From Gallaecimonas mangrovi (GTDB taxonomy: Bacteria; Pseudomonadota; Gammaproteobacteria; Enterobacterales; Gallaecimonadaceae): a stretch of DNA of 40,000 nucleotides. The notes under the pieces were generated by a model. It was not told the DNA's origin. It searched no databases and saw only the letters and a program-made list of their open reading frames with translations. Each line of letters begins with the position of its first letter. The stretch's first letter is position 1. Both the position numbers and the translations under genes were made by a program. Below, in pieces: positions 11,055-26,134 of the stretch. The stretch lies in contig NZ_CP031416.1 in the NCBI RefSeq assembly GCF_003367375.1, positions 3,900,674 to 3,940,673 of the forward strand, read 5' to 3'.

Positions 11055-12254
11055 TTAGGAAAGCACTTTTTGCGGGTCTTTACCGGCGTTAACCACGGGC
11101 CTGGTTTTCAGCCCAAACAGCAGCCTTAGCCAGCCAAACCGGCGCACCACTTCATAGCCGCCAGCGCAGCCGATAACGGTGAGCAGCAGCATCAAAATGG
11201 CCTCCAAAGCGGCAGGCAAATGCAGGGGCCTAAGTGCCACTGCCGCCAGAATGATCAGGGTTTGGTGCAGCATGTACCAGGGCAATACCGCCTTATTGGC
11301 ATAGCGTAGCCATGGCGCGTCCCGGTTTAAGTGGCGCCCGGCAAAACCGATTGCGGAGAGCAACCAACACCAGGGATTAAGGCTAAAAGCCAACGTATAA
11401 AGGCCAATTGCCCAGCTTTGCTGCTGCTGAAAAGCCGCAATTAAACCGGGTAGCCAATGCTGGTGGTCGATAATGGTAAAGGCATAGCAAAGCACCGCCA
11501 CCACCAGCAGCGGCCAACGTTTATCAATGATCCGCTGCCAAAGCGCTGGCAGACCCGCCAGCAAAAATCCCGCCACCATCGCCAATAAATAACGGCCATG
11601 GTTATACCAGTCGGCTACCAACGCATGATTGCTGGGGTAGCGGCCATGAAAGGCAAGGTAATTGGCCACTAACAGCAGCGCCAGGCCCAGCACCGCCAGC
11701 CAAAGCGGTAGCCGCTGCAGCCAGCGGCGCGCCAGCAACCAGGCCAGTGGCTTTTTGAGCGCCAGCAGAATAAGCGTGTAGCAAAACAGATACGGTAAAT
11801 ACCAAAGGTGGTTCCAGGTCAGTAAACCAATGGCGGTTTGGTATTGGGGAAAAAGAGCGGTTGCCGGGTTCAGATATTGCGGCCAAAACTGCCAAAAGCT
11901 CTGGCTGTAACCTTCAGCGAACACCAGTTGCCAATAAAGCTGCGGCGCACAAATTACCGCCATGCCAAAGGCCAGTGGTATCAGTAACCGCTTGGCACGC
12001 AGTGCAATCAGGGCGCGGGCGCTATAGCGTTTGGCCACCAGCGCCAAGGCAATGCCACTAACAAAAAACAGCAGCGACATCCGCCAGGGGTTGGTTAGCA
12101 GCATGGCATCTTGTAGCAGCGTTGACTGTTCGGCACTTTTTATGTGCCAATGCCAGTCGGCAACGTAATACATGCCGATGTGATAAAGGATAAGCACTCC
12201 AAAGGCCAGTACCCGCAGGGCATCAATATCAAAGCGTCGTGATGTTTGGTTCAT
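11055..12254 (-). CDS. Acyltransferase 3 family integral membrane protein
   Basis: About 10 hydrophobic segments, with the N-terminal DALRVLAFGVLILYHIGMYY signature. I chose the start at the MNQTS methionine (12254) rather than the longest ORF. Confidence 0.7.
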   Translation of the reverse strand: MNQTSRRFDIDALRVLAFGVLILYHIGMYYVADWHWHIKSAEQSTLLQDAMLLTNPWRMSLLFFVSGIALALVAKRYSARALIALRAKRLLIPLAFGMAVICAPQLYWQLVFAEGYSQSFWQFWPQYLNPATALFPQYQTAIGLLTWNHLWYLPYLFCYTLILLALKKPLAWLLARRWLQRLPLWLAVLGLALLLVANYLAFHGRYPSNHALVADWYNHGRYLLAMVAGFLLAGLPALWQRIIDKRWPLLVVAVLCYAFTIIDHQHWLPGLIAAFQQQQSWAIGLYTLAFSLNPWCWLLSAIGFAGRHLNRDAPWLRYANKAVLPWYMLHQTLIILAAVALRPLHLPAALEAILMLLLTVIGCAGGYEVVRRFGWLRLLFGLKTRPVVNAGKDPQKVLS

Positions 12255-12359
12255 GATGGCATCTACCGTTATGTTGGAGTCATCAGTGTTCAAACACCGC
12301 AAGCGCAACACCAGCGCCAAGGGTTTACTGGCCAAGGCTTAGGGATAAGAGGTGACAGG

Positions 12360-15400: not shown

Positions 15401-15961
15401 TTACAAGCTAAAGCAGTAGTTCAAGCGGTAGTCTTCACCATTTTTGGCGGTGTAGTCTTTGTCTTCGACGCAGGCTTCGGGCTTGTCGCCTTTCACCAGG
15501 CTTATCCAGTGGCGCATACCAGCGGTAGGGGTGTCTTGGTCAGCCATTTGCGTAAAAGTGGTGCAGGTTTCCAGCTGCACGTCGTCAATAAAGGCCAGCG
15601 CTACATTGCCCGAACCCTGGTGGCAACCGAATGCCACGTCTACATGGCCGCCGCTACCGTCGCGAAACAAAATAGAGCAGGGCGACTCTTTTTCCCCTTC
15701 ATAAGCCACGAACTGGCAAGGGTGCTTGAGGCCACTGTGGCTGCCATCTTTGAAGTAGGCCAGCAGGTGGTGATAGTCGATAACATAGCTGGTCACGTCT
15801 TGATGGGAACCGGCTTCAAGGGGGAACAAGTTATCTAAAAGCTGTTTGGCTTTGACCTGCTTTTCGCATTGCAGGCTGGCTTCCACCGCAAAAATGGCTT
15901 CGGCAATAAAGGGCTTTTGTTGTTCCTGGATCTCGGTTCTATCAAAAGTCAGCATGTTCAT
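15401..15961 (-). CDS. Hypothetical Cys/His-rich protein, divergent from the XRE/DUF2083 regulator
   Basis: The start at MNMLTF (15961) has a GAGGT SD. I recognise no family. Scattered Cys/His include HPCQF, FGCHQGSG, ETC, EAC and NYC. Confidence 0.5.
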   Translation of the reverse strand: MNMLTFDRTEIQEQQKPFIAEAIFAVEASLQCEKQVKAKQLLDNLFPLEAGSHQDVTSYVIDYHHLLAYFKDGSHSGLKHPCQFVAYEGEKESPCSILFRDGSGGHVDVAFGCHQGSGNVALAFIDDVQLETCTTFTQMADQDTPTAGMRHWISLVKGDKPEACVEDKDYTAKNGEDYRLNYCFSL

Positions 15962-16116
15962 GTTATCTACCTCGTTGGTGATTCGGTCTCTTGCCAGTGC
16001 ATGGTGTTTAACCTTAAGTGTGCTGCTGGTTAAGTGTTCACGGTGTTCGATAAGTAGACTAGCCAAAAGTTGACTATAATTTCACAACAAAAATTTTACA
16101 GTGTGAATTTTACAAA

Positions 16117-17640
16117 ATGGCAGTGTCAAAAAGCTTGGTCAGACAATCCCATTTTCTTGGCACCAAAGTCAGGAATTTGCGAAAACGTAACCACCTCACC
16201 ATGGAGGACTTGTCGTCCCGTTGCGTGCGCATCAACCCCGAAAACGCCCCGTCGGTGTCGTACCTGTCGATGATAGAAAGGGGCAAGCGGGTGCCCAGCG
16301 TCGAGATGCTGGAAGTGATTGCCGAGGTCTTTCAAAAAGACGTTAAATGGTTTTTGGACGACGAGCCGGAACAAGCGGAAATTACCCCCGACAAGGGTAA
16401 CCGCGGCGGCATTAGCGGCATGGCGCTGGAACCAGGCTTTTTGTTTTCAAACGAAATACTGCAAATTGCCATTCCAGAAATGCTGTCGCAAACCGGCATC
16501 ACCGGCCGCCAGTTTGCGCACCTATTGATACGTGCCCACCAGGAAAACCTGCAAAACCATTTTCCCAACCTGGAAAGGGCCGCCGAAGAAATCGGCCTAA
16601 AGCGCCTTAACCTGGCGGTGGAAGATTTGGTGGCTATCGCCAGCGACCTTGGCCTTAACATCAAGTGGGTAAAACGCACCCCAAAAGAGGTGGTAGACGA
16701 GCTTGGTATTAGCGCCAAACAGCTAGTGACCTCCTTTTTTGAACCGCCCGGCACCCTTTATTTAAACGAGATGCTGCGCCAATTTCCCACACGCCTGAAA
16801 TACGACCTTGCCGTCTACATTGGCCACAAGGTCTTGCATGGCACCGACGGCGTAAAAGGGGTGCTGACCATCGGCCACACCCAGCCCTGGGAAGAAGACA
16901 ACGCCGCCCCCACCGATGCCCTAAACGCCCAAGACATTTTGCAGGCCTGGCGCGATTTTGAATCGAGCTTTTTTGCCGGCGCGCTGCTCTGCCCCAAGGT
17001 GCCCTTTCGCCAACTGTTAGACAGCAACGGTTATGAAATTGCCGTACACAAAAAGGCCGGAGTGTCGCCGTCGGTGGCCATGCGGCGGATGACGGTGGTG
17101 TCGCCCTACCCGCACTGGCACTACTTCGACGCCTACGGCGAAGGCAAGCTCAAGGCGGTATATCGCGGTAACGGCATTCCGCTACCCTGGGGCAATATGC
17201 GCAAGGTCAAAGACCCTTGCCAGCACTGGGCGGTGTTTCGCCGCCTCTCGCAAGCACAGGCAGGCAACCCCAGCTCAGCGCAAATCTCCATTCTCAATGT
17301 CGGCGACAAGCCGCGTATTTATTGCTGCGAGTCGGTCAATATTCTCGACGCCGCCGGTAACGACCGGGTGCTTTGCGCCGGTATCGACCTTATTCCCGCC
17401 ATTACCGCCCAAGGCGTAGACGCCGACGCCATTGCCAGCGAACTCAAAGCCAGCTGCGTAAAAAGCGGCGGCGCCGCTGCCATCCCTAATGCCATTAAAA
17501 AGGAGCTGCGCACCATCGCCAAAATTCTCAATATCAACTGGATAGAGCGCGGCATCGAAAGCGACGCCCGGCTGATTTGCTCGCGGGGGGCGGTATGCCC
17601 CAGAAAGCCGAGTTGTTATGGGGGTTGCAGTGGCGAGTGA
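16117..17640 (+). CDS. XRE-family HTH regulator with ImmA/IrrE-like and DUF2083 regions (ScfR/RamB/PrpR-like)
   Basis: The N-terminal HTH is LGTKVRNLRKRNHLTMEDLS...VSYLSMIERGKRVPSVEMLEVIAEVF. The 507 aa length and Cys-rich C-terminal end fit the short-chain fatty acyl-CoA regulator family. Confidence 0.6.
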   Translation: MAVSKSLVRQSHFLGTKVRNLRKRNHLTMEDLSSRCVRINPENAPSVSYLSMIERGKRVPSVEMLEVIAEVFQKDVKWFLDDEPEQAEITPDKGNRGGISGMALEPGFLFSNEILQIAIPEMLSQTGITGRQFAHLLIRAHQENLQNHFPNLERAAEEIGLKRLNLAVEDLVAIASDLGLNIKWVKRTPKEVVDELGISAKQLVTSFFEPPGTLYLNEMLRQFPTRLKYDLAVYIGHKVLHGTDGVKGVLTIGHTQPWEEDNAAPTDALNAQDILQAWRDFESSFFAGALLCPKVPFRQLLDSNGYEIAVHKKAGVSPSVAMRRMTVVSPYPHWHYFDAYGEGKLKAVYRGNGIPLPWGNMRKVKDPCQHWAVFRRLSQAQAGNPSSAQISILNVGDKPRIYCCESVNILDAAGNDRVLCAGIDLIPAITAQGVDADAIASELKASCVKSGGAAAIPNAIKKELRTIAKILNINWIERGIESDARLICSRGAVCPRKPSCYGGCSGE

Positions 17641-17939
17641 GCTTTTACTCCCTGGCGGGATACCAGCACCTATTCCTATAACAGCCAAGTTAGGCATATC
17701 CACTTCTTTCACATTTTTAATGCTTAGCCGTTTACCCAGTGTTTTGATGTGGTTATGGTTGTTTAGGTTGGGTTTAACAAATGGATTTGGTGATAGGGAA
17801 GGCTGTCAGCTCAGGATGAGAAAGGGAGATTGGGAACCGCACCCAAGGGCGGTAGCGTCGATTGAGCCTTTTACTACCTAATCAATAACAAACTGATAAT
17901 TAATAGTTTTTCACTCTTACCCTGGTTTCACTGACGGCT

Positions 17940-18146
17940 CCTCTATACGCCGGGTCTCGCCCCGGCAGGCGAGGTACTTTGTTTTCGCACAAAGTACCCA
18001 AAGGCACCGCCCAGACGCTACGCGATGTCCTTACCTCTAGTCGCTTGCCGCTGACCGCTGCGTACGGTTCCCGACGCGTCCTCCGCTCGCTCGACATCCC
18101 TGTCTCGCGTCAGCTCACGCTCCCGACGGTAAGGCGCTCCACTTAA
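17940..18146 (-). repeat. E-family structured element, copy E1 (inverted relative to the other copies)
   Basis: The reverse complement aligns with E2/E3. It has the TTTAAGTGGAGCGCC start, the CCTTACC/GGTAAGG long-range stem, GACA-GGGA-TGTC, GAGCGGAGGA, the GGTACTTTGT/ACAAAGTACC hairpin, and a CCCGGC end. Confidence 0.7.
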
Positions 18147-18523
18147 ATGGGCTCCAAAAGCGGCGTTAGTAACACGTATGGGTGATAGAACTGTCTCAGC
18201 TGCCCCTACACTCCCATCAGCAAAGCGCTGCACTTAACGGGCAATAAGAGCGGTGACAGCAATGCCTTTGGTTGAAAAGACTGACCAAAGCTATTCCATC
18301 AAACCGCGAAGGGAAACAGATGATGTATCGCTTGTGCTATCAAATGACAACAAGCACTTATCTCGCTTTAAAACGATACCGCCCGATTTTATCACGCCAC
18401 AAACTGTGTTTTTGGCAAAAGTAATCATGAATATCATTTAGTTATTTCAATACCAACCAACTGGTCAAGTGAGCAAATGCGAGCACGATCGCTAATAAAA
18501 CTGTTATGCGCTATGGAGAATTC

Positions 18524-18771
18524 ATGAGTAATCTGGAGTTAGAGAAAAAATTCAGCAAACTATTATTAATGCTAGTCCTGGCCAGAAAATCGCACTGAAC
18601 TTCAGTGGTATTCCATTAATAATAGATATAAAAATGGAATTTAAAGGTGGCTGGGAAGTAACACAAACAATTATTCCCGGCAGAGCTTTTGAGTTCACCA
18701 AGGGCGAAGGAGACTTTTTAGTCAGCATTGACATAACGATGAATCCTTATGAAGGGCTTGCGAGCGCATAA
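18524..18771 (+). pseudogene. Small cassette ORF interrupted by a 1-nt frameshift in an A6 run (18545-18550)
   Basis: The ATG at 18524 reads MSNLELEKK and then leaves frame. The +1-shifted frame continues IQQTIINASPGQKIALNFSG...EGLASA to a TAA at 18769-18771, which lies inside the attC 5' box. Confidence 0.45.
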
Positions 18772-18865
18772 CAAACCAAGGCAGTGGGACGATTACATGC
18801 AGGCTCCCGTCACTTCGTTCCGTATTTTAGCCTGCATGTACTTGCCCCTGCTTGGGGCGTTAGGG
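18766..18865 (+). repeat. attC-like recombination site (classical type)
   Basis: The 5' box is GCATAAC and the 3' box GTTAGGG. The arms CCAAGGCAGTGGG / CCCCTGCTTGG pair, with an extra unpaired base in the 5' arm. There is a perfect 12-bp inner inverted repeat, TACATGCAGGCT (18794-18805) / AGCCTGCATGTA (18829-18840). Confidence 0.65.
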
Positions 18866-18904
18866 CTACCACATCGTTAAAATAACCAGCATAACGAATA
18901 AACC

Positions 18905-19891
18905 ATGAAGGTTAACTATTTCGGTTACTGTATAAGAAACCATGTAACAGGTCAGAAAATGCTATTTGACCTTAGAGATTTTTTGAAGGCATATTGCCGC
19001 CATGCCAGTACAGCATTTAAAAACAACTTTTTCCATAATGATGAGCATGTGTATCTTATTCATCATTTTGGAGATACTTTCCTTTTCTTAATTACAAGAA
19101 GCCATGAACTGATTAAGAAAGTGAATACTAATAATGTTTCCGTTGGTGAGATTAATTCGCTACTTGAACAAGATGAGCAACTTGGGTTCGCATCTTACTT
19201 ACATATAAAAGAGGATCATTTCGGGTTTGCATCTACATTGCTCGCGCCTAGAGTGGATGTTTTTACAACACACATAAATAACCTCCTTGAATCACTTGGA
19301 ATCCCTAATTTAAATTTCTTGCCACAAGCCTTGCTTTATCAAGCAACAAAAGAAGAAGCATTGTCGCTGCCACATATTGGGAGGACTACCATTGAACTGT
19401 CCAAGGAAAACTCATTTGTACAGGACATACTTGCGTCAATTTCCGCAAACACGACCGATACAATTGAACTTGATGGCATTGAGATCGTAATAAAGCCTAA
19501 GTCAAGAAAGAACATAAAGCCTACTGTTAGTAAGTTTCTATCATCTATCCCTGATGATGGCGTCGAGCGGATGATTATGAAAGCGAGAAATGAAGGTGCT
19601 TCTCAGATGACTGATTTATATCTGGTTGGTCGTGGAGCCATTTCAGATAGCGTGGATAAATCACAAGAAACTCGTATACCATCTCTATTAGAAGAGAAGA
19701 TGAATAGAAATAGATTTTTACAAGACAAGTTAACGGAGTACAGGGCTGATGAAGGTTTCGAGGAAAATTCTCTTGATGTTATTGTTCGGTTTACTGACGC
19801 TAGTGCCTGGGCCGATCTTTTATCTGATGTATTGCAAGATAGTAGCGATAGACCCGAGTTGGTCGATGAGCCTGATAGAACAGAAGAATAA
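18905..19891 (+). CDS. RexA-like abortive-infection protein
   Basis: The gene is AT-rich. By recollection it is collinear with lambda RexA. HVYLIHHFGDTFLFLITR matches NYLYIHKIDGKTFLFTKT, and EQDEQLGFASYLHI matches ADDESLGFPSFLFV. HIGRTTIEL matches FIGRTTVKV, and IEIVIKPKSRKNIK matches LDIVIKPKFKRDIK. Confidence 0.6.
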   Translation: MKVNYFGYCIRNHVTGQKMLFDLRDFLKAYCRHASTAFKNNFFHNDEHVYLIHHFGDTFLFLITRSHELIKKVNTNNVSVGEINSLLEQDEQLGFASYLHIKEDHFGFASTLLAPRVDVFTTHINNLLESLGIPNLNFLPQALLYQATKEEALSLPHIGRTTIELSKENSFVQDILASISANTTDTIELDGIEIVIKPKSRKNIKPTVSKFLSSIPDDGVERMIMKARNEGASQMTDLYLVGRGAISDSVDKSQETRIPSLLEEKMNRNRFLQDKLTEYRADEGFEENSLDVIVRFTDASAWADLLSDVLQDSSDRPELVDEPDRTEE

Positions 19892-20216
19892 TCTTGCTGT
19901 AATTGTAGCGACATTTGCATTTACTATGCTTGGATTTTTGGCAGCAGTGATAACAATCCTATTCTCTTTTTCTCGGTCTAGCACATTTAAAAAGTACAAG
20001 CGCAAAGGGCATTTAGATGTATTCTTCTTTGTCTACTATTTTGCGATAGTAAGCCTTGTTGTTACTTTTGTACTCGCTTTATTAACATTGGCTAGTGGTA
20101 ATGGATTATGGGCAATGCGAGGTGGACTGATGTCGACAGTCAATAATTTGGCTCAAATCACTTTACTGACTGTAATCATTGTAAATCTAAGCCGTAGGGC
20201 AATGAACGAGCCCTAA
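19749..20216 (+). CDS. RexB-like small membrane protein (4 TM from ATG 19749; 3 TM if ATG 19866)
   Basis: Its size and hydrophobicity pattern resemble lambda RexB, with a central basic loop (SRSSTFKKYKRKG vs GSRTRRLAKIRE). GGAG lies 10 nt before the ATG at 19749. The TAA stop is inside the CCCTAAC box of the next attC-like site. Confidence 0.55.
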   Translation: MKVSRKILLMLLFGLLTLVPGPIFYLMYCKIVAIDPSWSMSLIEQKNNLAVIVATFAFTMLGFLAAVITILFSFSRSSTFKKYKRKGHLDVFFFVYYFAIVSLVVTFVLALLTLASGNGLWAMRGGLMSTVNNLAQITLLTVIIVNLSRRAMNEP

Positions 20217-20354
20217 CAAGCGGCAGCAATCGGACTTACAAAACTGTCACTTGTTTTGCCAAAAAAGTGGCAAGAAAAACGTGGGACACCCACTTCTATA
20301 TCCCAATAAAATCAAATGGTAACGAAGCCACCTGCTTTTGGGGCCCCTTTAAGT
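20211..20354 (+). repeat. attC-like site, large conserved type (B-type), copy 1
   Basis: It starts with CCCTAACAAGCGGCAGCAATCGG. The conserved centre is ACCCACTTCTATATCCCAATAAAATCAAATGGTAACGAAGCCACC. It ends CTGCTTTTGGGGCCCCTTTAAGT. Confidence 0.5.
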
Positions 20355-20560
20355 GAAGCGCTGAGTGGAAAGGAACGTGAGTGGGCACGAGGCATGGACG
20401 CCGAGTGAGCGGAAGAAGGGCAGGATGCCCGTGTGCAGCGACCGCGGTAAGTGACTGGAAGCGAAGCAATAGCGTAACGCCGGGGTGTCGTTCTTTGCTT
20501 ACTTTCTTGGACAAGCAAGAAAGTAAGTCGCCCGCCGGGGCGAGTCCCGGCATTAACACA
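20349..20560 (+). repeat. E-family structured element, copy E2 (possible ncRNA)
   Basis: It begins at the TTAAGTG box and has GAGCGGAAGA and the GGGC-AGGAT-GCCC hairpin. A 12-bp hairpin CTTACTTTCTTG/CAAGAAAGTAAG follows. The GCCGGG/CCCGGC arms close the 3' domain. Confidence 0.7.
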
Positions 20561-20650
20561 CCAACCAGCGAATGAGGAAACTGAAGGTATAGCCATCTTT
20601 TTTATTAGTTTTCTCTAGAATTGACCTTTGTTTAAAAATGGTAAGACCCG

Positions 20651-21391
20651 ATGTTAAGACCAGAAATATTAAAAAGAGTAAAAGAAGAAATAGATCCATC
20701 ACTTTCTATTACGAAAAGAACAACTCCAGTTCCATACTTTGGGGATTATGATAATGCAAGAGCTTGTACTATCTCATTAAACCCAAGCGACCGAGAGTTT
20801 TGTGATAAAAATGGTGAAATTCTAATTCCAGAAAAAACAAGACTATGTTCAAGACAAGAACTTGAAAGAGAAGATTCTCAAGAGTTAACAGATTCAGAGG
20901 CAATAAAGGTAATCGATAATTGTAAAAATTATTTTAGAAAAAATCCTTATAAGTTATGGTTCAATAAATATGAAGAGTTCCTAAAGCAGTTTGAACTTTC
21001 ATACTATGATGGGTCGGCTGTACATCTTGATATTGTTCAATGGGCAACGACACCTTTTTGGAATAAGCTAAGTTCAGATACAAAAAGTATCCTTTTAAAA
21101 AAAGACCTACCTTTTTTAAAGCTGCTATTAGAAAAGAATTTTGATTTTATATTTCTAAATGGATTAACAGCTGTGACTGAAACAGCAAATGTTTTAGATA
21201 TCAGTCTGAATGCTATTCCATCAGAACTAATAGATGGTAAAGTCTCCCAAGTTTTTCTAGGGTGGTACAATAATTCTAGAGTAATAGGATGGTCTCCATA
21301 TATTCAGTCAGCATCAGTTGGCGGTTATAATAAAATAAGAAAAATTGCAGAAAAAATTATATCTGAAAATAGAAAAGACCTCATAAAATAA
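20651..21391 (+). CDS. Hypothetical cassette protein (very weak resemblance to UDG-superfamily motif order)
   Basis: An AT-rich 246-aa ORF followed immediately by an attC-like site. The order ACTISLNPSDRE ... IFLNG ... GWSPY loosely recalls UDG/MUG folds. This is speculative. Confidence 0.5.
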   Translation: MLRPEILKRVKEEIDPSLSITKRTTPVPYFGDYDNARACTISLNPSDREFCDKNGEILIPEKTRLCSRQELEREDSQELTDSEAIKVIDNCKNYFRKNPYKLWFNKYEEFLKQFELSYYDGSAVHLDIVQWATTPFWNKLSSDTKSILLKKDLPFLKLLLEKNFDFIFLNGLTAVTETANVLDISLNAIPSELIDGKVSQVFLGWYNNSRVIGWSPYIQSASVGGYNKIRKIAEKIISENRKDLIK

Positions 21392-21497
21392 TTTAGCGGA
21401 TCTTGAAATTTACTGGTTTTGCAAAACGTAGAATACCCACCTTTATATTCAAATAAAATCAAAAGTTAACGAAGCCACCAGCCTTCGCCCGTTAAGT
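21389..21497 (+). repeat. attC-like site, B-type, copy 2
   Basis: It starts at the stop codon (TAATTTAGCGG). The centre is ACCCACCTTTATATTCAAATAAAATCAAAAGTTAACGAAGCCACC. It ends with a canonical GTTAAGT (21491-21497). Confidence 0.5.
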
Positions 21498-21711
21498 GCA
21501 GCGCCTCGCGGGAAGGAGTGGGAGCTGACTTGAGGCAAGGATGCCGAAAGAGCGGAAGACGCGTCGGGAACGCGTGTGCAGCGGTCAGCGGTAAATGACT
21601 GGTAGCGAGGAAATCGCGGAACGTGGGTTGTGCTTTTGGTTGGGCAGCCCCGCTGACTTTTGGCGTAACAAAAGTAACCCGGCTGCCGGGCCGGAACCCG
21701 GCGTGTAACGG
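21492..21711 (+). repeat. E-family structured element, copy E3 (possible ncRNA)
   Basis: Paired helices are CCTCGC 21504-21509 with GCGAGG 21605-21610, GCTGAC 21523-21528 with GTCAGC 21584-21589, and GGCA-AGGA-TGCC. Further helices are ACGCG-TCGGGAA-CGCGT and ACTTTTG-GCGTAA-CAAAAGT. Confidence 0.7.
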
Positions 21712-21761
21712 AACCAGCAAGTATCATCAGGCAAGCAACTGACGCCCAATAACACAGACCA

Positions 21762-22553
21762 TCAACCCCAACCCTCCAAAACCTCCCCCAACACCTTCGC
21801 CAGCCCCTGTGGATTCTCCCACGCCATTGAATGCCCAGCGTCTTCCACCAAGGCGATATCAATGCCTTGAGCGGCCAGGATGTCAGTATCCGGGTCCGGC
21901 AGCGAATGCACACCAAACACAAAAGCTTTGGGGACCGGCAGCGCATAAAAGCGTTGCCGCCAGGATGGGCTGCCACCGGCGATAAGAGACACCGCCTCGC
22001 GATGCACTGCCTGGGGTAGACAAAGGCGCATACTGGCGGCCCACAGCTTGCCGCTGGGGTCGGCGCTGTCAACACTGCGGGCAATAACCTGCTGGTGACC
22101 GCAGTGAACGTAGTCTTGCTCGCTGATGGCGGCGATTTGTTTACTGAACATGCCGCCACCGGCATCGAGGTTGGCTTCACTCAAAACAAGGCCCGCCAGT
22201 TGCTCGGTAATAAGGCCCGTAAGCTCAATGGCCACAGAGCCGCCGCGGCTATGGCCGTACAGGTAGCAGCGACCCAGTTGCAAGCTTCGGATAAAGTCGG
22301 CCAGATACTGTGCGTGGGCGCTGATGCTGTAAGCAAACGCCTCGGGCTTGTCGCTAAAACCCGCCCCTAACAAATCCACCAGAATGCAGCGGTGGCCTTT
22401 GTGCGCCAAGCGGGTAGCCACTTCGGGGTAATCAAAGGAAGAGGCGCAGCCGATACCGTGAATAAAGACGATAGGCGTATTATCGCCGGGCAAGTCGTGA
22501 TAGCGCACATAAGCGCCTGCTGACGATACGAAAAATCCTTTCACCCTTACCAC
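21762..22553 (-). CDS. Alpha/beta-fold hydrolase
   Basis: It has IVFIHGIGCASS (oxyanion region), the nucleophile elbow YGHSRGG, and a C-terminal DAGH catalytic-His region. The start is GTG. The gene is antisense to the attC polarity. Confidence 0.75.
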   Translation of the reverse strand: MVRVKGFFVSSAGAYVRYHDLPGDNTPIVFIHGIGCASSFDYPEVATRLAHKGHRCILVDLLGAGFSDKPEAFAYSISAHAQYLADFIRSLQLGRCYLYGHSRGGSVAIELTGLITEQLAGLVLSEANLDAGGGMFSKQIAAISEQDYVHCGHQQVIARSVDSADPSGKLWAASMRLCLPQAVHREAVSLIAGGSPSWRQRFYALPVPKAFVFGVHSLPDPDTDILAAQGIDIALVEDAGHSMAWENPQGLAKVLGEVLEGWG

Positions 22554-22591
22554 CCCGTTTGTAGTCCACGTTTTTGCGGCGGTGATATTAC

Positions 22592-22690
22592 CTGAACAAA
22601 GTCAGATCTCTAACGAAGCTAGCTGCTTTTGGGCCCCAATAGCGTAACGCCCGGCGGATAGAGAAACCGAGTGGCATCACACCAATAAAA
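22592..22690 (+). repeat. Degenerate junction: internally deleted attC-like site fused to a deleted E element (mini copy E4)
   Basis: CTGAACAAAGTCAG...TCTAACGAAGCTAGCTGCTTTTGGGCCCC runs directly into AATAGCGTAACGCC and then CCCGGCGGATAGAG. The TTAAGT box and both E domains are missing. Confidence 0.55.
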
Positions 22691-22732
22691 AAAGCAATTC
22701 TTCCCTTTATAACCAAACTAAAAAAGCCGACC

Positions 22733-23479
22733 TCACCCCGGCTGCGCCACCAATACTCCCTCAACGGCAAGCACATCTTGCAAGTGTTTAATAAGCAGCC
22801 CTGAGTAGGTTGCGTCATCATAATGATGGTCGCAGGGATCTTTGTTCAAAAGATAAGGGGCAACCAGACCATCTGGCCCTAAAGACTCGTTGTCTAACCA
22901 AAGGTAGTGGTGTCCCTGCTGTTGGCAGTAGCTTGCCATTTGTTTGTTAAAGGCCAGAGTCAGTGCGGTTCTTTGCTGTTGGGTGGCATTGATGTCGTTG
23001 CGGATATTCGCAATTTCGCCCCAGTCGTTATCATCCCTGATAGTTGGCATTGGCGTAGAGATACAGATAACCGGCGCTAAGGCGGCCACCTCGGCAATAA
23101 AGGCCTGATAGTTATTGACGGCTTTTTCCAGCATCTCAGCGACTGGAGCCTGGTATTTCTCGGCCCGATACCAAATGACAAACCCGGTATCGACCTCACC
23201 GAGCAGCAGCACAATATAGGCTGGGCGAGCCGACTTTAACGCCTTGCGGAATTTATCCAGCGCCTTGGTCTTGGAGTTCGGGTTTTCCAGGCCAGAAATG
23301 GTTGCGCCGCCCACGGCGCAGGTTGAAACAAAAAAGCCTGGGAACGCTTTTTTTAGAAGCTCTTTTTTAAAGACACTGGCATGAGAGTCCCCCAACACCA
23401 ACACCTCTTGCAAATAAAAACGCTTAAAATACTTCAGTACGCGCTGAATACTTTTTCGCTTTAGAAATTTTACTGCCAT
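22733..23479 (-). CDS. SGNH/GDSL-like hydrolase-type protein (tentative)
   Basis: VLVLGDSHASVF resembles SGNH block I, and a DHH lies near the C-terminus. The start is taken at MAVKF (23479). The gene is antisense to the attC polarity. Confidence 0.4.
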   Translation of the reverse strand: MAVKFLKRKSIQRVLKYFKRFYLQEVLVLGDSHASVFKKELLKKAFPGFFVSTCAVGGATISGLENPNSKTKALDKFRKALKSARPAYIVLLLGEVDTGFVIWYRAEKYQAPVAEMLEKAVNNYQAFIAEVAALAPVICISTPMPTIRDDNDWGEIANIRNDINATQQQRTALTLAFNKQMASYCQQQGHHYLWLDNESLGPDGLVAPYLLNKDPCDHHYDDATYSGLLIKHLQDVLAVEGVLVAQPG

Positions 23480-23616
23480 TGCACCGCTTCTTTTCGAACA
23501 GCTGCCCATTTTTAGCTCGCCGCAGCCAACATTAACTTTCACTAAAATAATGAGGCGGCCATAGAAAAAGCCGTCTTTAGCGGTCTGTATTTTTTCGTGA
23601 AAACATGACCTTGTTT

Positions 23617-23767
23617 GTTAAACAATCGTGCAGCAAATCACCCGCACAGTCGCAAGGCCATTAGCGTGCTGATGGCACTATTAGCAAATAGACGTGGGGC
23701 ACCCACTTCTACATCCCAATAGAATCAAAAGTTAACAAAGCCACCTGCTTTTGGGGCCCCTTTAAGT
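23617..23767 (+). repeat. attC-like site, B-type, copy 3
   Basis: The 5' arm GTTAAACAATCGTGCAGCAAATC parallels CCCTAACAAGCGGCAGCAATCGG of copy 1. The centre and 3' end are nearly identical to copy 1 and end in TTTAAGT (23761-23767). Confidence 0.5.
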
Positions 23768-24141
23768 GAAGCGCCTTACTGGCGGGAGTGGGAGCTGATG
23801 CGAGTCAGGGATGAGAGGCGGCCAGCTTGGTCAAACTGAACACGCGTCGGGGCGAAGCTTGCGCATCAAAGTGCTGCTTTGATGCTGCTGAGCGCGAGCA
23901 CAGGACGTGGCGAGCCGGAATGCTAGCAACACGGGATTCAATCAGGACACCGCGACAAATTTGCCAGGAGCAAATTTGAATATCGGCGCTTGCGACGATT
24001 ACCCGTTAGGGCGAAGACCGTGGATGGTCTGAGTAAACGTGGGCAGTGCTTTTGGTTGGGCAGCCCCACTAACTTTTGACGTAATGTATACAACGTAACA
24101 AAAGTAACCCGGCTGCCGGGCCGGGACCCGGCATTAAAAAC
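23762..24141 (+). repeat. E-family structured element, copy E5 (expanded first domain)
   Basis: It has the same start and the same 3' domain as E3. About 0.2 kb of extra hairpins sit in the first domain, for example CATCAAAG-TGCTG-CTTTGATG and CAAATTTG-CCAGGAG-CAAATTTG. Confidence 0.65.
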
Positions 24142-24202
24142 CCGGCGGATAAAGGGATCACCCGTTTCAACAAACCCCAAAATCCACTAAACCCAACCCA
24201 CA

Positions 24203-24230
24203 AAAAAGCCGCCCTAGGGCGGCTTTTTTT
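24203..24230. terminator. Hairpin terminator at the right array/core boundary
   Basis: AAAAAAGCCGCCCTAGGGCGGCTTTTTTT lies just downstream of the minus-strand peptidase gene. Confidence 0.8.
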
Positions 24231-24247
24231 ATTCGCTAACTACACCG

Positions 24248-26134
24248 TTACTCAGGCAACACATTAAAGGTCACCGAGCTCGGATACTGCTCAGAGTGGT
24301 ACACCTTGTGGGTCGCACGTTCAAAGTCGGCTTTTTTGGCCTCAAAAATATTCGGTACATATTTTTGCGGGTTCAAATCGAGGAACGGGAACATGGTGCT
24401 TTGAATTTCTATTTCCAGTTTGTGGCCACGTTTAATGTTGTGGAACACGTCGTAGAGGTCGAATTTCACTTCAGTAGGCTTATTGGGCACAAAGGGCTCA
24501 GGCTTGGAGAAGCTATTGCGGAAACGGCCGCGAATAACGCCCCAGCGCACCAGTTCATGGCGATTGCCGGTGTCATCATCTTTAAGGCCGGTGTTCTCGT
24601 CGGTGCCGGGGAACACATCCACCAGCTTAACGATAATGTCGGCGGCGGTGTGGTCGGTCGAGAACCACAAGTTGACCTTAAGGCGGCCAGCAATGGTCAT
24701 GTCGTGCTTGGCAACCGGGGTATCAAATACCAGCACGTCGGGGCGACGGGCGGCAAAGCGCTGGTCAGCGGCCATGTACTCACGGGCCCAGCCACGGGTA
24801 ATGCTGGTGGACTGCGGTACCGGTTTATTGGGGTCAGAAACGTAGTCGCTAAAGCCGCCTTTAGGGTCTTTGTGGTCCAGCAGCTTTTCACCGCCGCCTA
24901 AATACAGGGTTTTAGACTCGGTGTGCTTGGGCGGCCAGCTGTCAAAGGTACGCCAGCGGTTAGCACCGGTTTCAAAAACAATGGCTTTGGCCAGTTCAGG
25001 CTCTTTTTTCCCTTTCAGATAATGCTCGAAGAACGGCAGTTGCACGTGGTCTTGGTACCACTTGGTGGTGTCAAAACCGAACTGGGCGGTGCCCATGTGC
25101 GAGCCGTCGGCGCGGTTCCATTGGCCGTGGAACCAGGGGCCCATTACTAGGCGAACGTTACTTTTCTTGTTGCCATGGGACATGGTGGCGTAGGTAGACA
25201 GCGCGCCGTACAGGTCTTCGGTGTCGTACCAGCCGCCCACCACCAGGGTTTCAGGCTTGGTGTTTTTCAGGTGCGGCAACACATTACGGGCCTGCCAGTA
25301 GGCGTCGTAGTTGGGGTGCTCGGTAATTTCGTCCCAGAACGGGCGCTTATGGTGGAAGTATTCCTTGTTGGCGTTGCTCAAGGGGCCCAATTCTTTAAAG
25401 AACTGGTAGCCGTCTGGGGTGTAGAGCTTGTGCCCTTCCGGCCAAACGCTAATGGGGCCCTTGCGGGGCTTGTCAAAGGTGTCGAGGAACAAAAACGCCA
25501 TGGGGGTAACGAAGGTGCCGCGGCGGTGGAAGTCGTCTCGGAACCAGTTGGCGATGGGCGCCTGCGGGGAAATGGCTTTTAGCGCCGGGTGGGCGTGAAT
25601 AGACGACACCGAGGTGTAATAACCCGGGTAAGAAATGCCCCACTGGCCCACTTTGCCGTTGTTATCGGGAATGTGTTTTACCAGCCAGTCGATGGTGTCA
25701 TAGGCGTCGGTGGCATCATCGGTGGCCTTGCCACCTTTTTCGGCTGCGTCTTGCGGGCGCATGTTGACGAACTTGCCTTCAGACATAAAGCGGCCGCGAA
25801 TGTCCTGGAATACAAAGATATAACCGGCTTTTTCAAAGCTTTCGCTTGGCCCTAAGCGGGTTTTGTATTTGTCGGCTCCGTACGGCGCAACCTGGTAAGG
25901 GGTGCGCTGCATCAAAATGGGGTATTTCTTGGAGCGATCGTAGGGAATGTAAACCGAGGTAAAGAGCTTAACACCGTCGCGCATCGGGATTTGGTATTCA
26001 AACTTGGCATAGTGGCTACGAATGTAGTCAGCCCGCTCTTTATCGGCCTTGGCAGGCTCGGCGGCAAAGGCCGTGCTGACCAACAGCAGCGCCGCCAATG
26101 CTGCCGCGAAGCCGCGCATCATTATGGTTTTCAT
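24248..26134 (-). CDS. CocE/NonD family hydrolase (S15 Xaa-Pro dipeptidyl-peptidase type), secreted
   Basis: 628 aa with a signal peptide (LLVSTAFAAEP) and the nucleophile segment WGISYPGYY. A large C-terminal beta-sandwich region is typical of the family. Confidence 0.8.
   Translation of the reverse strand: MKTIMMRGFAAALAALLLVSTAFAAEPAKADKERADYIRSHYAKFEYQIPMRDGVKLFTSVYIPYDRSKKYPILMQRTPYQVAPYGADKYKTRLGPSESFEKAGYIFVFQDIRGRFMSEGKFVNMRPQDAAEKGGKATDDATDAYDTIDWLVKHIPDNNGKVGQWGISYPGYYTSVSSIHAHPALKAISPQAPIANWFRDDFHRRGTFVTPMAFLFLDTFDKPRKGPISVWPEGHKLYTPDGYQFFKELGPLSNANKEYFHHKRPFWDEITEHPNYDAYWQARNVLPHLKNTKPETLVVGGWYDTEDLYGALSTYATMSHGNKKSNVRLVMGPWFHGQWNRADGSHMGTAQFGFDTTKWYQDHVQLPFFEHYLKGKKEPELAKAIVFETGANRWRTFDSWPPKHTESKTLYLGGGEKLLDHKDPKGGFSDYVSDPNKPVPQSTSITRGWAREYMAADQRFAARRPDVLVFDTPVAKHDMTIAGRLKVNLWFSTDHTAADIIVKLVDVFPGTDENTGLKDDDTGNRHELVRWGVIRGRFRNSFSKPEPFVPNKPTEVKFDLYDVFHNIKRGHKLEIEIQSTMFPFLDLNPQKYVPNIFEAKKADFERATHKVYHSEQYPSSVTFNVLPE

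Follow-up and report, generated by a model that had tools for sequence, protein, structure and literature searches.

A family of structured elements with a conserved fold at gene-cassette junctions in Gallaecimonas, tentatively read as a junction module

Gene-cassette arrays are one of the principal ways in which bacteria acquire defence and adaptive genes, and the only well-understood junction in such arrays is the simple attC hairpin of integrons, read by the integrase IntI. An attC site is a single imperfect hairpin of 57–141 nucleotides (nt) that ends 6 nt past the crossover, and it recombines via its bottom strand; within it, R''/L'' pair with L'/R', and the R' core GTTRRRY at the 3' end has a complementary RYYYAAC at the 5' end. 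A folded single strand also makes the recombination substrate at attP(+) of CTX-phi, and arrays of integrative mobile elements exploiting Xer (IMEX) accumulate tandemly at dif via the host recombinase. Insertion sequences (IS) of the IS200/IS605 type and palindrome-associated transposable elements (PATEs) carry strand-specific hairpins, with neither inverted repeats nor target duplication, and IS605 inserts 3' of TTTAA(C). IS110 elements are not known to carry passenger genes. The DUF1874 motif is a multi-stem structure found in consecutive intergenic regions that alternate with open reading frames (ORFs), without an integrase at the end of the array, and its authors proposed that it is possibly an unusual attC site or a single-stranded DNA (ssDNA) structure (Weinberg et al. 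2017, PMC5737381). Here, we analyzed a 40,000-nt stretch of the Gallaecimonas mangrovi chromosome (NZ_CP031416.1, positions 3,900,674–3,940,673; hereafter the window, to which coordinates refer unless another contig is named). It contains a family of ~310-nt units with a conserved fold, which lie between foreign cargo genes with a shared polarity and, in two species, at the boundary between conserved and variable gene content. Our tentative reading is that the unit acts in cis, as the junction or recombination module of a growing array of single-gene cassettes.

In the G. mangrovi chromosome, the family consists of four full copies (E1, E2, E3, and E5), a doubly deleted mini copy, and a 5' fragment (E1'), all within one 6.3-kb stretch. 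An earlier examination of the letters alone (hereafter the sequence-only reading) had placed the first five where we also find them, and had overlooked the sixth piece, E1'. No further copy was found with an nhmmer profile and a covariance model in the other 34 kb of the window. A full unit runs from an upstream part U (75–83 nt) through a box, TTAAGTGNAGCGC, and a G-rich folded body (~210 nt) to a tail (~25 nt). U is conserved in sequence only, the tail closes the fold of the unit, and conservation stops ~25 nt past CCCGGC. The element had been proposed to start exactly at the box; this placement has to be revised, since sequence conservation begins 75–83 nt further upstream and the outermost helix, CCC/GGG, begins before the box, which lies within an internal loop. 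The 13-mer TTAAGTGNAGCGC has five perfect matches against 0.35 expected occurrences, a count reached in 0 of 100 shuffles, and this core is unchanged in five copies whose remainder is 71–94% identical. The 7-bp TTAAGTG is identical in all five window copies, and the bases flanking it covary as a pair (G..C, T..A, and T..G); the box reads GTTAAGT in E3 and E1', and TTTAAGT in E1, E2, and E5. Upstream, U holds AATCAAA(A/T)G(T/G)TAA at 20306–20318, 21453–21465, and 23719–23731, i.e., 30–42 nt ahead of the box, with one mismatch to the integration host factor (IHF) consensus WATCAANNNNTTR; the near-IHF site reads AATCAAAAGTTAA. An AAAGT(T)AAC motif returns in the 3' domain, right before its GC-rich hairpin.

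Unit E1 (17925–18208, minus strand) is inverted relative to the others, with its tail at 17925–17939, body at 17940–18133, box at 18134–18146, and U at 18147–18208, and is supported by nhmmer (18191–17926, E = 6e-79), a covariance-model match (18008–18150), and inverted repeats I1–I5. Fused to its U is the partial unit E1' (18193–18284, minus strand), made of a U-like part, a second box (18225–18237), and ~50 nt of body, and detected through the box match, inverted repeat I6, and nhmmer (E = 1.3e-5). On the plus strand, E2 (20275–20585; U 20275–20348, box 20349–20361, body to 20560, tail to ~20585) and E3 (21422–21735; U 21422–21491, box 21492–21504, body to 21711, tail to ~21735) were delimited by repeats, copy alignment, RNAalifold, nhmmer, and the covariance model. 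The mini unit (22595–22690, plus strand; repeat families D4 and D11; nhmmer E = 4e-4) retains the 3' part of U and the tail GGATAGAGAAACC, and lacks two internal stretches, one reaching from the box as far as the 3' strand of P1 and the other comprising most of the 3' domain. Finally, E5 (23688–24170, plus strand; U 23688–23761, box 23762–23774) is a long form of 483 nt with an ortholog in G. pentaromativorans. Homology to E1–E3 covers its first ~55 nt and its last ~110 nt; between them lies a differing central block of ~190 nt (23823–24011). The CCCGGC end of E5 is duplicated (24127–24150), and the two CCCGGC tails follow each other over 24127–24165, an E2-like CCCGGCATTAAAAA and then an E1/mini-like CCCGGCGGATAAAGGG, which looks as if the end of an older unit had been left behind E5. 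Homology between the flanks of E1 and E5 beyond their tails was considered and set aside as not significant (z 2.6).

The nearest relative of a copy varies by segment: E2 and E5 are closest in U (91% identical), E1 and E3 in the middle (87%), and E3 and E5 in the 3' domain (94%). U and box together are 93% identical between E2 and E5 (20279–20361 vs 23692–23774), while over the first 55 nt E1 and E2 are each 85% identical to E5. The copies are thus mosaic, and we conclude that the units have exchanged segments.

The family is real, and its conserved fold is statistically supported. The helices named in the sequence-only reading exist and covary: RNAalifold on E1, E2, and E3 yielded 59 pairs in 12 helices, including 18 pairs changed on both sides. 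The consensus energy of -63.9 kcal/mol compares with -38.9 +/- 4.2 kcal/mol in 300 column-shuffled alignments (z = -6.0), and the 18 compensatory pairs with 6.2 +/- 2.1 expected from the same shuffles (maximum 12), for a structure derived from the same three sequences that tested it. A separate counting of pairs found 92.5% of cells paired and 18 double-sided pairs vs 7.3 +/- 2.0, a number equaled in 0 of 500 shuffles, and slid controls gave 0–3 double-sided pairs. Single-sequence folds had modest z-scores (-0.5, -1.5, and -2.5). Once E5 joins the alignment, two 3' hairpins covary too. One is ACTTT../..AAAGT; the other is GC-rich, with TCGCC/GGCGA arms in E1 and E2, CCGGC/GCCGG arms in E3 and E5, and overlapping GCCGG/CCGGC arms that are invariant. 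The tail forms a closing helix with the start of the 3' domain. Four copies retain a tandem GA/GA internal loop, whose flanking stems are CTT/AAG, CGC/GCG, CAC/GTG, and TGC/GCG. Between E5, its central block included, and the G. pentaromativorans long form, no shared structure was supported (z = -1.25; 15 compensatory pairs vs 16.4 expected).

The two strands differ in how well they fold, with the sense strand at -63.9 kcal/mol (z = -6.0) and the antisense strand at -45.0 kcal/mol (z = -4.4). In the helices shared by the two strand folds, wobble-compatible changes favour the sense strand ~4 to 1. The bodies are G-rich on that strand (76–85 G vs 46–49 C), and, judged by eye, this bias seems to follow the orientation of the element itself in the inverted E1 also. 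The number of helices and the G-richness of the sense strand tend to favour RNA over folded ssDNA, and the fold looks more like RNA than like any known DNA site. A free-standing family of non-coding RNAs (ncRNAs) is therefore the main rival to the junction module.

The setting of the units is that of an array. They separate unrelated cargo segments of 836–1342 nt, each consisting of one gene or one operon with minimal flanks: from left to right, a small-ORF cassette ending in an attC site, RexA/RexB, ORF246, an alpha/beta hydrolase, and a GDSL-like hydrolase. GC content varies from 31 to 58% across cargo, and from 57 to 61% across unit bodies. E2, E3, the mini unit, and E5 (4 of the 5 units) have the same orientation although the cargo genes run +, -, and -, while E1 is inverted. 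As the sequence-only reading had stated, the element is not a plain 5' untranslated region (UTR): a same-strand gene follows E2 only, E1, E3, and E5 face convergent genes, and the position is hence not consistent with a cis-regulatory 5' UTR or a riboswitch.

At the right end of the array, E5 lies between the array and the terminator of an S15 peptidase gene, at the edge of synteny. Right of ~24200, gene order and sequence are shared with G. pentaromativorans (70–81% nucleotide identity), and left of it they are not. In the three assemblies of G. pentaromativorans, a long-form copy occupies the same place in the same orientation, with unrelated genes beyond it; common to it and E5 are the upstream part U, the region of the box (TTTAAGCAGCGCGC), the first ~45 nt, and an island of 60 nt in the centre. 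The flanking conserved gene encodes an S15/CocE-NonD peptidase (24248–26134, minus strand; Pfam). Next to it, a perfect 14+14 palindrome with A/T runs on both sides (24202–24229, inverted repeat I11) is kept in G. pentaromativorans; it serves the peptidase gene as a bidirectional terminator and marks where conserved synteny starts. A contig from a Gallaecimonas-related metagenome-assembled genome (L094) has neither unit nor insert at this position, and carries intI fragments and a canonical cassette 8–10 kb from the S15 gene on the same side. The 60-nt island of the long forms (23862–23925 in the window, ~12230–12290 on the minus strand of the G. pentaromativorans contig L091) has one sense frame reading ..LA(H/Y)QSAA(L/V)MLLSAST.., in which 3 of 5 differences are synonymous and which is without a conserved start codon; the island could be a tiny ORF or an RNA motif.

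If the unit is a junction module, a chromosomal hot spot immediately downstream of the S15 peptidase gene would be where site-specific recombination built up the array. Recognition of U and the invariant core TTAAGTGNAGCGC would be at the DNA level, with a crossover in or beside the 7-bp TTAAGTG. The body would be used single-stranded and in the sense direction, be it as a transcript or as folded ssDNA, and the fold may be what selection kept in copies from different donors. A recombinase acting in trans would be encoded elsewhere. We favour this reading because unit polarity is uniform whatever the cargo orientation, because unrelated and compositionally foreign single genes are tightly bracketed, because a unit sits at the conserved/variable boundary in two species, because the core is invariant in otherwise diverged copies, and because derivatives by deletion (mini), fusion (E1'), and inversion (E1) exist, which are the traces expected of a recombination-prone site. 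Also counted in its favour are the mosaic make-up of the units, the integron-cassette type of the cargo, the maintenance of the fold by compensatory change across diverged copies, and the intI fragments and canonical cassettes found on the same side of the S15 gene in L094.

Several observations weigh against this reading. The conserved fold is confined to one side of the supposed crossover, whereas attC has only 6 nt beyond it, and 12 helices, a tandem GA/GA loop, and a G-rich sense strand resemble RNA more than a DNA site. No integrase, transposase, or other recombinase was detected in the window (Pfam on large ORFs, tblastn with IntI1), and within 10 kb of the copy in G. pentaromativorans none was found either. 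Shuffled sequences fold as well as the stretches ahead of the boxes do (z -1.6 to +0.7), and the 3' end of U bears no significant resemblance to the L'-R' half of the local attC (z < 2.2). Mosaicism could stem from gene conversion between neighbours, and only ~7 copies are known, from 2 species. A stronger version of the proposal, that the units are cassette recombination sites of a new class, in which a structured RNA or a folded strand encoded right beside the crossover core participates in cassette gain and loss or even directs it, is doubtful. If true, this class would be an integron-like capture platform without attC hairpins or an adjacent IntI, possibly RNA-guided in the manner of bridge RNAs.

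The surroundings of the units are cassette-like, and the link to cassette boundaries drawn in the sequence-only reading holds. A long imperfect hairpin with bulged bases (ATAAC...GTTAGGG; 18773–18870, plus strand; ssDNA fold z = -3.3/-3.4) is the sole genuine attC in the region, and a 45-aa ORF terminates inside it; no additional attC site was found in 17612–17945. Directly behind this canonical attC lies the RexA and RexB abortive-infection pair (RexA 18905–19891, RexB 19749–20216, plus strand; Pfam and PADLOC; GC 38%), i.e., a phage-defence system carried as an integron-type cassette. An R''-L''-like half site, GCCCTAACAAGCGGCAGC (20213–20230, plus strand), stands where rexB ends. The rexAB cassette starts with a match to the complement of this half site (TTAGGGC), and no convincing partner arm was located for it. 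ORF246 (20651–21391, plus strand; segment GC 31%) had no match in Pfam, PADLOC, or other families. A homologue (58% identical) on a metagenome contig (L097, 3890–5800) is a canonical integron cassette with an attC of ~120 nt on each side, followed by a PhdYeFM-PIN toxin-antitoxin cassette. With RexAB behind a true attC and an ORF246 homologue between attC sites, the cargo is of the integron-cassette type. The remaining cargo genes encode an alpha/beta hydrolase (21762–22553, minus strand; Pfam), whose closest homologues are <=59% identical, and a GDSL-like hydrolase (22733–23542, minus strand; weak Pfam match). On L094, 19525–21447 holds two copies of one intI 5' fragment and its upstream region, with a TraB/GumN cassette and its attC between them, which appears to be a rearranged or decaying integron.

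We next compared the units themselves with known classes. Like attC, they lie between cassettes with one polarity, their fold is conserved over sequence, and they would act single-stranded; a true attC and cassette-type cargo occur in the same array, and GTTAAGT fits the attC R' core GTTRRRY in 2 of 5 boxes (E3 and E1'). Unlike attC, in which the hairpin ends 6 nt past the crossover, sequence and multi-helix structure are conserved over ~230 nt past the box, and the better-folding strand corresponds to the cassette top strand. The box had been described as closing a large attC-like site; this did not hold up, as the part before the box forms no hairpin (the z-scores given above contrast with -3.3/-3.4 for the genuine attC). 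Near the box, AGTTAAC forms only a ~40-nt mini-palindrome without bulged bases, and there is no R'' at attC distance. An ORF-less cassette, one of the roles suggested earlier, does not fit either, since no attC lies between the element and the cargo that follows; of the other two suggested roles, a cassette-borne ncRNA and a folded extension of the recombination site, either may apply. Nor is the region an attC array or a CALIN (cluster of attC sites lacking integrase), since the window holds no integrase, intI included, and one canonical attC only, while a CALIN needs >=2. The unit thus resembles attC in placement but fails three of the four attC features tested, the fourth, the R' core with its complementary partner, giving a mixed picture, and we do not class it as attC.

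Among other systems, the DUF1874 motif shares with the units the occurrence in consecutive intergenic regions without an integrase, and differs, by its description, in its usual 5' UTR position. The order U, core, and ~200-nt body recalls the junction of right end, core, and left end that encodes the bridge (seek) RNA of IS110/IS1111 elements (PMC11187229), and a large internal loop separates P1 from P3 in the body. We rejected a bridge RNA, as there is no DEDD recombinase ORF in the window and no positionally conserved complementarity between body and junction: the loops match the junction only by 7–9-mers that differ per copy. The parallel with CTX-phi and IMEX is a proposed one, i.e., a folded strand as substrate, tandem accumulation at one site, and a recombinase encoded elsewhere. 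In contrast to these systems, no XerC/XerD 11-6-11 site is present at the box (by-eye comparison with dif), and the fold is far larger and not a forked hairpin. A tyrosine-recombinase complex site of the attP type would have an identical overlap of 6–8 bp between inverted core sites, arm sites, sites for bending proteins, and an integrase gene. The 7-bp identical TTAAGTG and the near-IHF site would be compatible with this; no integrase was found and no arm repeats were identified. Searches for transfer RNA (tRNA) or transfer-messenger RNA (tmRNA) genes and tandem repeats as possible integration targets found none. The units belong to no known RNA family, in agreement with the sequence-only reading: Rfam 15, which covers riboswitches, ribozymes, group II intron domains, HEARO, STAXI, and others, gave no match at the gathering score across the 40 kb, and at E <= 5 in 17600–24300 nearly all matches were driven by the ~24200 terminator and none fell within the unit body. 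A conserved small protein is equally unsupported, reading frames not being conserved, as also noted earlier; 1-nt indels between copies switch frames, and six-frame translations share only what DNA similarity dictates.

The rival that the RNA-like fold brings forward is a free-standing family of structured ncRNA genes, in which U is the promoter and the body the RNA, and whose paralogues in a flexible island have a function apart from recombination. We consider it somewhat less probable than the junction module. The strong covariation of a multi-helix fold, the better-folding and G-rich sense strand, and the GA/GA loop between covarying stems all point to it, U is conserved in sequence alone, as a promoter would be, with a weak sigma-70-like GGGACA-18-TAAAAT in E2, and the long forms (E5 and G. 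pentaromativorans) resemble variable-domain expansions. Yet structure in these long forms found no support, the promoter-like hexamers match poorly and are kept neither in G. pentaromativorans nor in E1, the sense strand has no intrinsic terminator after the body, and two copies are internally deleted. The ncRNA explanation also leaves unaccounted for why diverged paralogues alternate with foreign single genes, and why a copy sits at the synteny boundary in two species. An origin as a non-autonomous transposable element, similar to PATEs or to miniature inverted-repeat transposable elements (MITEs) and perhaps derived from an IS200/IS605-type ssDNA transposon inserting 3' of TTTAA, is unlikely. 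The body does begin right after (T/G)TTAA in all copies, with a left junction TTTAA that fits, E2 and E5 end at ATTAA, and strand-specific structure without terminal inverted repeats or target-site duplications, neither of which is visible here, is compatible with IS200/IS605. Against it, conservation crosses the supposed ends by 75–83 nt upstream and ~25 nt downstream, the hairpins near the two ends are dissimilar, neither TnpA nor TnpB is encoded in the window, and the copies, at 71–94% identity, are not near-identical. They are also clustered in 6.3 kb rather than dispersed, with none in the other 34 kb and only the ortholog in 22 kb of G. pentaromativorans.

Two further explanations call on transcription or on decay. 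As an expression or insulation module, the unit would allow foreign genes to be transcribed independently, through a promoter with a structured leader on one strand and a terminator-like hairpin on the opposite one. The antisense strand of each full copy is indeed terminator-like, with a GCCGGG/CCCGGC hairpin followed by a run such as TTACTTTTGTT (17954–17985, 20528–20543, 21676–21695, and 24106–24125, on the strand opposite each unit), in E1, E3, and E5 this site is directed at the 3' end of a convergently transcribed gene (DUF3612 regulator, hydrolase, and S15 peptidase, respectively), and E2 stands 90 nt ahead of ORF246. A terminator, however, needs ~30 nt rather than a multi-helix fold conserved over 210 nt, the sense strand is the one that covariation favours, the genes of the GDSL hydrolase and S15 peptidase have strong terminators of their own, and the 4 of 5 units facing a convergent gene are not significant (p ~0.19), all of which makes this role quite improbable. 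Least probable is that the units are remnants, decaying and without present function, of an ancestral locus that had been duplicated. The mini unit and E1' are deletion products, and the family is limited to one genus in reachable data, as this would predict, but neutral loss would not give 18 compensatory pairs vs 6–7, nor 92.5% paired cells at 71–87% identity.

Within the reach of the collections searched, the family appears confined to Gallaecimonas. A scan of a genome collection, seemingly without the source genome, for TTAAGTGNAGCGC-N40-50-GAGCGGARGA had 0 matches, as had scans of viral contigs with the 3' and the 5' pattern, and the 10 matches of the 5' pattern in metagenomes were all attributed to chance, with no similarity past the pattern. 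Nothing relevant was returned by blastn against plasmids and phages, and 80 Vibrio loci fetched via the DUF3612 regulator contained no unit by BLASTN and nhmmer. Homologues of the hydrolase and ORF246, <=61% identical and from unrelated taxa, offered no route to further units. The 22 kb of G. pentaromativorans yielded only the orthologous copy. This species has repeats of its own between cassette-like genes (L091 15800–19750; SUKH/SMI1, DUF6438, and PIN-DUF4325), namely an 85-nt pair and families with CATCTTCTGAGT.. and GGACACCCATC.. motifs, unrelated to the G. mangrovi units. They were examined as distant relatives of the unit and rejected, as local alignment gave nothing above z = 4 vs shuffles and the covariance model was empty.

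To the left of the array, at 15401–17640, a 221-aa fragment with only the insertion domain of malate synthase G adjoins the DUF3612/helix-turn-helix (HTH) regulator. The pair has 62–86% protein identity to a conserved Vibrio gene pair, for which several Vibrio records are chromosome 2, and the rest of the window has no synteny with Vibrio. By this similarity, 15401–17640 appears to be a Vibrio segment that arrived by horizontal transfer and includes a truncated malate synthase.

The units constitute a previously undescribed family of structured elements, tied to cassette junctions and narrow in distribution, with one genus so far. If they are recombination sites, they would represent a second, more complex way of building cassette arrays, and a concrete case for the suggestion made for the DUF1874 motif on complex structured motifs. 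If they are RNAs, they would be a new class of ncRNA carried in flexible islands.

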